Origin: an uncultured archaeon
GTDB taxonomy: Archaea > Asgardarchaeota > Thorarchaeia > Thorarchaeales > CAZPUN01
DNA length: 32,000 nucleotides
Reading direction: 5' to 3'
Assembly (NCBI GenBank): GCA_964589775.1
Contig: CAZPUN010000037.1
Coordinates: forward strand, 1 to 32,000
Below are positions 11,516 to 23,209 of the stretch, piece after piece. The stretch's first letter is position 1; each line of letters begins with the position of its first letter. The position numbers and the translations under genes are program-made. Below the pieces are notes generated by a model. It worked only from the letters and a program-made list of their open reading frames with translations, had not been told where the DNA came from and did no database searches.

Positions 11516-12886
11516 CTATGAAATTATGGACTTCATTAAGTCTAATATGACATTAATATATTGATTCATCTTTTGATTATTCGTAGATTCACATGTAACC
11601 CTTATTTTTGGTTCGGTTCCGGATGGACGTACTAGAACCCACCCATCATCAAGCACCATACCAAAACCATCAACATCAACTATTTCGACAATGTTATTAA
11701 ATTTTTCAGGTAGAATTTTACTTACTTGTTTCATAACATCCGCTTTCTTATCATCATCACATTTTATACTGACACGCCTATGAGGAAATTCTGGAATTTC
11801 AGACATAAGTTCGCTAAACTTTTTATTTTCTTTTGCCATGATTTCTAAAAGTACTCCTATTGCCATTAGCGTATCAGGGCCATAATGGTGTTCTGGAAAG
11901 ATATATACACCACAGGATTCGCCACCAAAAATACCTTTTTTATTATACAAGGCATAAGCGACATTTATATCGCCGACAGGTGTGCGTATGACATTCCCAC
12001 CAGCTTTTTTTACTAAATCGTCCAATACAAAAGAGCTATCAACAGTAGTAACAATTGTACCCTTTTTGTTTTTCAAATATCGCAATGCGATCATAGTAAT
12101 TACTCGGTCTGCGCTATGCAGTTTTCCGGTCTCATCAATAAATACTACACGGTCTGCATCACCATCGTGCGCAATCCCAAGATCATAATGCCTTTGCCGT
12201 ATTAGAGAGAACAACTCTTCAAGAGATTCTTCATTAGGTTCAGATTTTCGCCCCGGAAAATATCCATCAGGATGTGAATTTAATGTTGATACACGTGCAT
12301 TTAATTTTCGAAGAAGATAAGGTGAAACTAACGATGCCGCACCATTCCCGGGATCTATTAGAATTTCAAATTTTTTAGATCGGATAAGTTCACTTGAAAT
12401 GCTTCGGATAACGTAATCAATATGATCATCGACTAAGGAATCATCAACAGAATATTTACCTATATTATCCCAATTTGCATAATTAAATGCTTTATCAAAA
12501 TAAATTTTTTCAATTTTCAATTCTTCTTCAGGGGGAATACCTAACCCATCTTTTCCCCAAAATTTAATTCCAACATATTCAGGAGGATTATGAGAAGCAG
12601 TTATTATTACACCCGCACGATATTTATTTTTTTTAAGACTAAAAGCAAGAGTTGGTGTTGGAATTACACCTGCATCAACTACATTAATAGACGTTGCCAT
12701 AAGACCGCTCTGAAATGCCATCTGTATAATTGGAGACGTCGTACGAACATCACGGCCTACTAAAACAGTTCCTTGCTTCAAATATGTTCCAAACGCAAGA
12801 CCAAGTTCCAAAGCCATTTCTGGAGTAATGCCACTTCCAAATATCTTTCGAATACCAGTCGTACCAAATAGTTTTCTGCGACTCAT
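11516..12886 (-). CDS. glmM: Phosphoglucosamine mutase / phosphohexomutase
   Basis: FGTTGIR, TASHNP (catalytic Ser), DGDADR, GESCG, RPSGTEP. Substrate specificity (GlmM versus PMM/PGM) is not resolvable by eye. Confidence 0.85.
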   Translation of the reverse strand: MSRRKLFGTTGIRKIFGSGITPEMALELGLAFGTYLKQGTVLVGRDVRTTSPIIQMAFQSGLMATSINVVDAGVIPTPTLAFSLKKNKYRAGVIITASHNPPEYVGIKFWGKDGLGIPPEEELKIEKIYFDKAFNYANWDNIGKYSVDDSLVDDHIDYVIRSISSELIRSKKFEILIDPGNGAASLVSPYLLRKLNARVSTLNSHPDGYFPGRKSEPNEESLEELFSLIRQRHYDLGIAHDGDADRVVFIDETGKLHSADRVITMIALRYLKNKKGTIVTTVDSSFVLDDLVKKAGGNVIRTPVGDINVAYALYNKKGIFGGESCGVYIFPEHHYGPDTLMAIGVLLEIMAKENKKFSELMSEIPEFPHRRVSIKCDDDKKADVMKQVSKILPEKFNNIVEIVDVDGFGMVLDDGWVLVRPSGTEPKIRVTCESTNNQKMNQYINVILDLMKSIIS

Positions 12887-13128
12887 AAAAAGCACCTAAG
12901 GATATAAAAAATATTTAGCGTTTAAATATTATGGACGCCATATTTTCAAATAATCGAAAAGACTTAATAATAGAGTTGATATGATATATGTTCAGAGAAA
13001 TATCTATTAAAGATGAAAAATAATAATTAGTCATAACCACATTATGGTGAAAATACATCGCATTTCAAAGCGATGATGAATCGCCTAAAAGTTAATAAAA
13101 GTGTAAGCATATAATATAAATCGAGCAA

Positions 13129-13306
13129 ATTGAGGATTTAGATGATGGATCGCGACTTGAACATATCGCATCCAAGAATATCCTCAATAAATGGAGCAAA
13201 TAACATAGCTCCCTCGCTGGGCACAGCGAGTATATGTGCGAAATGGCTATCCCACAGCAGCCTATTCGCAGAGCCTCCGCAGTTCATCGCGGAGAGTGTG
13301 CCATGT
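13129..13306. ncRNA. Candidate structured non-coding RNA of unknown family
   Basis: GC-rich island (59 of 104 nt G+C over 13203-13306) in AT-rich intergenic DNA, with at least five stems and no convincing ORF. Confidence 0.55.
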
Positions 13307-13371
13307 CAAATTAATATAAATGTAATATAATTTAGAAAGGAAAATCTTTATACATGCAAGGATGTGACCCC

Positions 13372-13914
13372 ATGAGCTCTACAAGTTACGATTATCTCTT
13401 TAAAGTTGTAGTTCTTGGAGAAGGAGCAGTTGGAAAAACCGCACTTACCACGAGATTCGCACATGGTTTCTTTAAGTCTGATTATAAGACAACAATTGGC
13501 TCTCAGTTTGCAGTTAAAGCTGTAGCAATTAAAAATCCAAGACCTGCAAATGTAAAATTACAAATATGGGATGTCGCTGGACAACAGCGATTCCAAATTC
13601 TAAGGCCAACATACTATAAAGGCGCTGCAGGTGGAATATTAGTCTATGATGTAACTCGACGAAGAACATTTTTACTATTGGACGAATGGCTTCAAGAAAT
13701 TAAGAAAGCCATTGGTAAAATGATTCCGCTAGTTCTCGTAGCAAATAAAATAGATTTACCAGATAGAGCGGTCACAACTGAGGAAGGAAAAGCTTTTGCT
13801 GAAGCACACGGCATGCCATATATAGAATCCAGCGCTGCAACCGGAGAAAATGTAGTTGACTTATTCGCAACCCTTGCGGAGTTGCTTGTGAAACAAAGGG
13901 AGGGAATAATTTAA
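13372..13914 (+). CDS. Rab-like small GTPase (stand-alone)
   Basis: YDYLFK, GEGAVGKT, IGSQF, KLQIWDVAGQ, YYKGA, LVYDVT, NKID, SAA. GAAAATCTTTATA lies about 25 nt upstream of ATG 13372, suggesting a leaderless transcript. Confidence 0.93.
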   Translation: MSSTSYDYLFKVVVLGEGAVGKTALTTRFAHGFFKSDYKTTIGSQFAVKAVAIKNPRPANVKLQIWDVAGQQRFQILRPTYYKGAAGGILVYDVTRRRTFLLLDEWLQEIKKAIGKMIPLVLVANKIDLPDRAVTTEEGKAFAEAHGMPYIESSAATGENVVDLFATLAELLVKQREGII

Positions 13915-22333: not shown

Positions 22334-23209
22334 TCATCTTTTTATTATTTTATGAATGTATTTATATAGCTCATCTTTTCGATTTGCCTCAGGAGATAAA
22401 TACAAAGGAATCTCACTTTTCAAATAAGACATAGCTTCTTGTGCCTTAATAGTATATATTTTTGAAGAATCTGGTGAAATGTAGTCTATGGCCTTCTTAA
22501 AGCGTTCACCACTATAAGGAAATACATGACCTGGAGCAACTACAAGTACTAAATCAACACTATTTATTTCTTGAAAAGGCCATGCCAAATTATTAAAGCT
22601 TTCAATAATCAGAAAATCAGACTTGCCTTTTAAATAATTAAAAGTACTATAAATTGATTCCTCATAATATCTATAAAATAAACTATTCAATTGTGCGATA
22701 CTATCTACAACAATCAATTCATTAACATTTGAAAGTAATGCATCAGTCTCCTCATCAGATAAGAAAGTAACTCCTGTTTCGATAGGTTGCTTAGCATATA
22801 GAAAAATATTATGGATCGTGTTGTTTTTGTAAAGAGAATACCGTTCGATTGCAAATATAGAAACCCAGCTAGTCAAAAACAAATTATACATTGCAAAAGG
22901 TTCTGTAGGTGATTGTAATCTTGCAGGTACAGCAAGGCGATGATTTGGATTTATTATTTCATATGGGATTCCACTTTTGGCTATGGTTTCTAGCTGGTCA
23001 ATATCGCTACTGAATAACCTTTTTTGATCGATACACTTTTTTGTGTGGTCATATTTAAACCAATAATGGTGACCACTCTTAGGCTTATACGGAATAACTG
23101 AATAGCCCATTTCTTTAATGGTCTGAATGACGCGTTTAGCAACTGTAGTTTTTCCGGAATCAAACTCAAGCATACCTGTGATCAAGATTGTATAAGTCAT
23201 CAAGCTCAC
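22334..23209 (-). CDS. Archaeal P-loop NTPase (BioD/CobQ-like, COG4028-type)
   Basis: ITGMLEFDSGKTT, YKPKSGH, IIESFNN. Confidence 0.7.
   Translation of the reverse strand: MSLMTYTILITGMLEFDSGKTTVAKRVIQTIKEMGYSVIPYKPKSGHHYWFKYDHTKKCIDQKRLFSSDIDQLETIAKSGIPYEIINPNHRLAVPARLQSPTEPFAMYNLFLTSWVSIFAIERYSLYKNNTIHNIFLYAKQPIETGVTFLSDEETDALLSNVNELIVVDSIAQLNSLFYRYYEESIYSTFNYLKGKSDFLIIESFNNLAWPFQEINSVDLVLVVAPGHVFPYSGERFKKAIDYISPDSSKIYTIKAQEAMSYLKSEIPLYLSPEANRKDELYKYIHKIIKR

Follow-up and report, generated by a model that had tools for sequence, protein, structure and literature searches.

A probable relic copy of a non-autonomous IS200/IS605-type element family beside a Rab-like GTPase gene in an Asgard archaeon

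Positions 13038-13304 (+) of the window, the whole stretch of 32,000 nt of archaeal DNA that was analysed, are best explained, with a probability of roughly 85%, as an old copy that has lost the ability to be mobilised and belongs to some 40 non-autonomous IS200/IS605-type elements, a family of palindrome-associated transposable elements (PATEs) whose members would be relics decaying in place. By analogy with IS608, a Y1 (HUH) TnpA acting in trans would have bound the pair of similar hairpins near the ends of the top strand in its single-stranded form, with the tetranucleotide on the 5' side of each hairpin foot guiding it to the cleavage sites, and would then have excised the strand as a circle and inserted it 3' of a TTAC. 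The original prediction for this region was a structured element, possibly an RNA. A structured element is indeed present, with stems that are conserved in the family through compensatory changes and with neither an Rfam family nor a tRNA match.

Element limits and the repeat family in the host genome

The position of the element and its two flanking genes are as follows.

13038-13304 (+): whole non-autonomous IS200/IS605-type element (probable PATE copy), 267 nt, with limits set by homology among 36 copies
11516-12895 (-): flanking phosphoglucosamine/phosphomannomutase family gene (glmM-like), matching all four Pfam PGM_PMM domains
13354-13914 (+): flanking Ras/Rab-like small GTPase gene (Pfam Ras, 3.7e-50)

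Identity to the family consensus drops to 0.45-0.47 in both flanks of the element. The region first noted, 13129-13306, holds stems that do lie inside these limits, but the element starts 91 nt further left, at 13038, and includes a left hairpin (13056-13075) that had not been seen; the part first noted is the right two-thirds of the element. The Pfam matches agree with the earlier naming of the neighbours as glmM-like and Rab-like, and the GTPase gene starts 50 nt past the right end. A 211-nt region here forms a GC island (55% against about 30% GC in the flanks), and its predicted folding beats all 200 dinucleotide shuffles on either strand, with z-scores of -4.15 (plus) and -4.26 (minus). 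Against Rfam, the region had no match at the gathering threshold, matches at E<=10 amounted to noise, and no tRNA was predicted in it by ARAGORN. A 62-codon ORF with an ATG start begins inside the element (13142-13330, +). That it encodes a small protein is scarcely credible: although the frame is open, it has no Pfam match and is not kept among copies, the indels between copies are not multiples of three, and the longest open frame is anywhere between 30 and 90 codons, depending on the copy. Judged from its sequence, the ORF is a chance frame in GC-rich DNA.

The host genome is represented by a 2.16-Mb Asgard MAG of 64 contigs that is 96.75% complete. Searched against this genome, the stretch gave 17 BLAST matches, iterated nhmmer recovered 36 near-full copies plus about a dozen fragments, and a covariance model gave 41 matches. 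The copies are 193-276 nt long, too short for a transposase gene, and diverged, with a median pairwise identity of about 60% and an identity to the nearest copy of 58-88%; the window copy is 71% identical to its nearest relative. The youngest members (82-88% identity) form a shorter subfamily that lacks the long H1/H2 hairpin described below. In many copies, stems are disrupted, GC is lower and the model scores are poor (46-70 bits, compared with 100-136); C21:174571-174801 and C57:6088-6358 are examples of copies that resemble the consensus. All copies are intergenic and their neighbouring genes are unrelated. Their orientation relative to these neighbours is random (18/15 for the upstream gene; 18 same and 17 opposite for the downstream gene). 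Every pair of left and right ends is spaced 139-228 nt apart, and therefore no copy encloses a gene and there is no long version of the element. The family also accounts for several similar GC-rich islands elsewhere in the host genome.

Outside this genome, the family appears restricted to its host lineage. BLAST found it in 0 of 40 relatives, and the family model R1 in none of 236 other Asgard genomes (0/86 of the order and 0/150 sampled from the phylum). The left-end 20-mer had two matches in the genome contig collection, both by chance, and one true match among metagenome contigs, which is the same organism at 99.8% identity. Two exact patterns gave only chance matches in viral contigs, and blastn against plasmids gave noise.

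These copies bear directly on the earlier classification. The region had been treated as a single-copy RNA, and many dispersed copies, as an indication of a MITE, had been named beforehand as an observation that would refute it; about 40 such copies were found. A host structured RNA present once, whether of U1/Sm type or other, or a 5' leader of the Rab-like GTPase gene would account for stems located 50 nt upstream of the GTPase start and for a region that folds well. Against it stand the dispersed copies beside unrelated genes in both orientations, the lack of an Rfam match, the absence from the other Asgard genomes and a junction-closing stem that pairs only at background level, which together leave this explanation a very slim chance. 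The proposed U1 snRNA or Sm-class RNA fails on the same grounds, being multicopy and lineage-restricted, and a cis-regulatory leader is unlikely because copies occur in either orientation beside unrelated genes. Recognising the family thus removes a false lead, namely a 'U1-like' RNA beside a eukaryote-type GTPase in an Asgard archaeon.

Several further observations concern the genomic surroundings of the copies. In the contigs of two DNA runs that were examined for mobility, no clean empty site or insertion polymorphism was seen, and a 91-nt 'skip' in those contigs is most likely another, shorter copy at 80% likeness. Comparison of the contig ends of the host genome revealed assembly overlaps only and no common IS. 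At two places (G000:C21:44364-44490 and G000:C64:26089-26232), a second right-end hairpin with its tail is found about 60-85 nt past the right end of a full copy; on C21, a rare variant letter is shared by both right ends, pointing to a local duplication or to the use of an alternative boundary. Solo left-end hairpins are located at G000:C39:50107-50167, C39:61696-61733 and C59:20997-21051, each just past the stop codon of a gene and followed by a T-run, and these may be core-deleted remnants that now occupy a terminator-like position. An unrelated dispersed repeat is present at the right end of G000:C48 (last 400 nt) and at C40:13403-13514, C50:1118-1295 and C44:5824-5942. One contig end yielded 15 BLAST matches to this repeat, one copy of which directly follows the PATE at C50:795-1120.

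Element ends, missing enzymes and a gene-bearing relative

The ends of the family were defined as consensus sequences from anchored alignments of left ends (n=36) and right ends (n=40). In the window copy, the corresponding features are:

13034-13037 (+): putative target/cleavage tetranucleotide outside the left end, degenerate here (TAAC; family consensus TTAC)
13052-13055 (+): putative left 'guide' tetranucleotide, adjoining the left hairpin foot on its 5' side (AATA here; consensus AAAG)
13056-13075 (+): subterminal hairpin of the left end (IPL-like), separated from the border by 18 nt; 82% of family cells pair
13076-13100 (+): conserved post-hairpin box and AT-rich promoter-like box, TATA-like at 13092-13099; consensus identity 0.72-0.79
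13271-13274 (+): putative right 'guide' tetranucleotide on the 5' side of the right hairpin foot (GAGC here; consensus GAAC)
13275-13294 (+): right-end subterminal hairpin (IPR-like); 83% of family cells pair, with two-sided changes at 7 of the 8 pairs
13295-13304 (+): right tail of 10 nt with the putative right cleavage motif; the consensus ends TCAG, and 4 of 10 letters differ here

The hallmarks of IS200/IS605-type ends recur throughout the family. TTAC directly borders 18 of the 36 left ends, against about 0.6% expected by a rough estimate from base composition, and the sequence further to the left shows no conservation. The consensus left spacer measures 18 nt, as it does in the window copy, and ends in AAAG, which precedes the left hairpin foot in 18/36 copies; GAAC precedes the right hairpin foot in 15/40 right ends. 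The left and right hairpins are alike, with a TCGC/GCGG core and a T.G mismatch common to both, and the consensus wobble of the right hairpin is valid on the plus strand only. The right tail is 10 nt long in both the consensus and the window copy. Presumably, the right end of IS608 resembles this tail. Terminal inverted repeats are lacking, as the consensus left end and the reverse-complemented right end agree in only 4 of 30 letters, and no target duplication was detected, the four letters after the right end being AT-rich and unrelated to TTAC. Inspection by eye for pairing of the right tail with upstream sequence, and for a kink-turn in the left-end internal loop, gave nothing convincing. 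The changes to TAAC, AATA and GAGC, together with the four altered tail letters, imply that the window copy would not be mobilisable even with TnpA present; nearly all of its stems are kept despite these degenerate cleavage and guide motifs.

The enzymes expected for such a family are not detectable in the host genome, in which neither Y1 TnpA (PF01797) nor, above cut-off, TnpB (PF07282, PF01385) was matched, and for this reason the copies look like relics. Among 40 genomes of the same order, Y1 TnpA is found in three, and the TnpB zinc-ribbon domain (PF07282) in 34, with up to 45 matches per genome. The host genome is smaller and more AT-rich than those of its same-order relatives. The missing cognate TnpA bears on the current activity of the family and not on the identity of the element. 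A PATE family in an Asgard genome without tnpA or tnpB, in an order where TnpB is common, is a small data point on the decay of such elements after enzyme loss.

A gene-bearing relative can be highlighted in another genome of the order, G031 (G031:C338:5537-8530, locus L110), where an element at positions 1383-2932 of the locus carries tnpA (Y1_Tnp) followed by tnpB. Its left end consists of TTAC, an 18-nt spacer ending in GAAAG, a hairpin at the same position as in the family and the same post-hairpin box, and its right end of GAAC, a hairpin and a 10-nt tail identical to the family consensus tail. Local alignment scores exceed those of shuffled sequences at both ends (left end, 36 vs 17.6±3.4; right end, 30 vs 11.7±2.3). 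The interior, in contrast, scores 23 against the 3' region of the G031 tnpB, compared with 19.3±3.1 for shuffles, which is not significant and indicates that the two are unrelated. The G031 element further differs from the family in that it encodes tnpA and tnpB and has hairpin stems of other sequence, and the family model R1 has no match in the G031 genome. Judging by the shared ends, the family consists of PATEs from an IS605 lineage of which this related Asgard genome carries a gene-bearing member. The L110 element itself looks complete: its tnpA of 133 aa is leaderless-looking, and the tnpB frame runs past the right end without a stop as far as the end of the contig.

Positions 13076-13100 align with the stretch between left hairpin and tnpA in G031, in which a TATA-like box is located about 26 nt before the ATG. 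In the window copy, the TATA-like sequence at 13092-13099, for which we infer a promoter function from this alignment, would place the start of transcription near 13120, immediately ahead of H1.

Two elements of about 50 nt are found in the host genome outside the window (G000:C61:~22735-22790 and G000:C56:~44405-44460). They are composed of TTAC, a 19-nt spacer ending in AGAAAG, a single hairpin of G031 type and a 10-nt right tail, and by analogy they look like the 'terminal-only' PATEs described in Haloquadratum. On C61, the element directly adjoins a truncated main-family copy that has the opposite orientation.

The interior structured module

Between the promoter-like box and the right end, the following structures are predicted on the plus strand.

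13129-13188 (+): long bipartite hairpin, in which H1 (13129-13137/13180-13188) encloses H2 (13146-13155/13166-13174)
13208-13230 (+): two crossing helices, H4' (13208-13211/13219-13222) and H4 (13213-13218/13225-13230)
13237-13270 (+): helix H5 (13237-13242/13265-13270 and 13245-13248/13259-13262) with a highly conserved internal loop

The pairing statistics for the helices of the 3' half rest on a model-based realignment of the copies; on an unrefined MAFFT alignment of the full set, RNAalifold detected hardly any structure, owing to misalignment and decayed copies. In H1 and H2, 86% and 75% of family cells pair, with 5 and 2 pairs, respectively, that change on both sides. The corresponding values are 72% for H4', a helix that was not part of the model used to build the alignment, and 78.5% for H4, and several copies carry distinct compensated variants of these two helices. 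For H4', compensation is seen in many copies. As there is no linker between them, H4' and H4 would form either a tight, strained pseudoknot or alternative hairpins. The two parts of H5 pair in 81% and 81.5% of cells, and the letters of its loop, together with the preceding 6-mer (13231-13236), are the best conserved of the element (0.87-0.94), above the ends. Over the five helices of the 3' half, 79.6% of cells pair, compared with 75.6±0.6 in column shuffles (reached in 0/500) and with 31-47% when the partners are slid as a control. Cells with changes on both sides of a pair number 62 in these helices, compared with 37.5±6.2 in shuffles, a modest excess over a control that itself overstates covariation because the copies share descent. 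Wobble pairs favour the plus strand (253 vs 149), and several consensus pairs are U.G on this strand only.

All plus-strand stems of the original prediction are present where it had placed them, including 13146-13155/13166-13174, 13213-13219/13224-13230 and 13275-13280/13289-13294, and all but one are kept in the family, with 72-86% of cells pairing against the slid-partner values. In the competing stem 13193-13197/13208-13212, 57% of cells pair, without compensation. The predicted set was also incomplete, as it missed the crossing helix H4', and the family consensus lacks, on either side of the long hairpin, the 8-mer reported to occur there twice. The minus-strand closing stem (13203-13209/13300-13306) did not hold up either: only 45-46% of family cells pair in it, which equals background, and it straddles the right border of the element. 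G-U pairs had been taken to favour the minus strand, opposite to the wobble bias observed across the family. The minus-strand cloverleaf, or four-way junction, was considered as a candidate fold and rejected, since it is not conserved in the family.

Nothing but the ends is required by TnpA, so the interior of the active master copies must have served a separate function. As arranged, the module (H1/H2, H4'/H4 and H5) would be situated downstream of a retained, putative promoter box of tnpA type and directly upstream of the right end. Its most likely product would be a guide-RNA scaffold of omegaRNA-like type that was read out past the right border and served a TnpB in trans; this proposal, to which we give slightly less than an even chance, follows from the frequent coding of omegaRNAs by PATEs, from the scaffold layout of ISDra2 and from the need for an interior function. 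Under the simplest reading, the compensated differences would have arisen among active master copies, whereas inserted copies would now be decaying. Searches for a direct link to TnpB were negative: the family profile had no nhmmer match in 30 TnpB loci from relatives, and no blastx match between the copies and TnpB proteins had an E-value under 0.02. In tblastn, ORFs from the relatives' TnpB loci matched housekeeping neighbours only. In addition, no pairing of the last nucleotides before the right border was found. The conserved interior, with its compensated stems and crossing helix, represents a candidate guide-RNA scaffold without a known TnpB.

It is also conceivable, though unlikely, that the interior stems act at the DNA level only, by folding the excised strand or by helping TnpA to join the ends, or that the interior is a passenger, so that no RNA is involved. 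IS200/IS605 transposition uses folded single-stranded top-strand DNA, and IS608 has a second hairpin (PMC3201880). The excess of wobble pairs on the plus strand would be expected of RNA and top-strand DNA alike. However, a TnpA that requires only the subterminal ends has no need of such an interior, as the terminal-only elements of about 50 nt here and in Haloquadratum illustrate, and the interior is more conserved than the ends.

Another explanation holds that the copies are lineage-specific, functional small-RNA genes under host selection, domesticated from or carried by transposon ends and equipped with their own promoter box. The interior stems with their many compensated variants, the very well conserved unpaired loops, the promoter-like box about 25-30 nt upstream of H1 and a window copy that retains nearly all stems while its transposition motifs degenerate would all be in keeping with this scenario. 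We nevertheless regard it as improbable, given that so many copies have broken stems, lower GC and low scores, that one subfamily has H1/H2 deleted and that the family is found in no relative. Moreover, once consensus-wobble columns are set aside, wobble and A.C outcomes are about equally frequent by a rough count, as neutral decay predicts. Poorer still are the prospects of a bolder version, in which the roughly 40 elements would be working, promoter-bearing omegaRNA-like guide RNAs that use their own flank as guide, either for an unrecognised RNA-binding partner or in modulating adjacent genes, in an archaeon that lacks TnpB. If it were true, the would-be guide of the window copy would overlap the promoter region of the Rab-like GTPase gene.

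Comparison with IS608, PATEs and ISDra2

The best reference for the ends is IS608 of Helicobacter pylori, which is cleaved 3' of TTAC, 19 nt 5' of its left palindrome, and at a second site 10 nt 3' of the right one (PMC3201880). Recognition of these sites depends on guide tetranucleotides that lie on the 5' side of the hairpin feet, AAAG being the left one, and transposition involves the top strand only. IS608 lacks inverted repeats and causes no target duplication; complex formation is affected by a second hairpin, located 3' of the left palindrome (PMC3201880). Compared with this published geometry, the family has TTAC and AAAG in common with IS608 and spacings of 18/10 nt in place of 19/10 nt. 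Differences are that IS608 encodes TnpA and TnpB, ends in TCAA (TCAG in the family) and resides in a bacterial host.

PATEs are defined by near-terminal palindromes, the lack of inverted repeats and of target duplication, a 5' spacing that exceeds the 3' spacing, and heterogeneous copies (PMC3119063). This definition fits the family, and the PATEs of Haloquadratum walsbyi and Geobacillus stearothermophilus are likewise gene-less, with IS605-like palindromes and with core-deleted and terminal-only derivatives (PMC3119063). In those two species, cognate tnpA/tnpB genes or pseudogenes are present in the genome, whereas none are detectable in the Asgard host. A limited literature search found no description of PATEs in Asgard archaea, which is weak evidence of their absence. 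PATEs often encode omegaRNAs, which are used in trans (PMC10055086).

For the interior, the closest counterpart is the omegaRNA (reRNA) of ISDra2 TnpB, whose scaffold of at least 116 nt is located directly 5' of the right end and contains several stems and a pseudoknot, with the flank beyond the transposon border serving as the guide (PMC10097598). The family and ISDra2 differ in that ISDra2 has its TnpB partner and in that the candidate crossing helix of the family is confined to the scaffold, leaving out the nucleotides that immediately precede the border. No similarity is seen at the level of sequence or model. The predicted module of the family has several stems and, like the ISDra2 scaffold, is located directly 5' of the right end.
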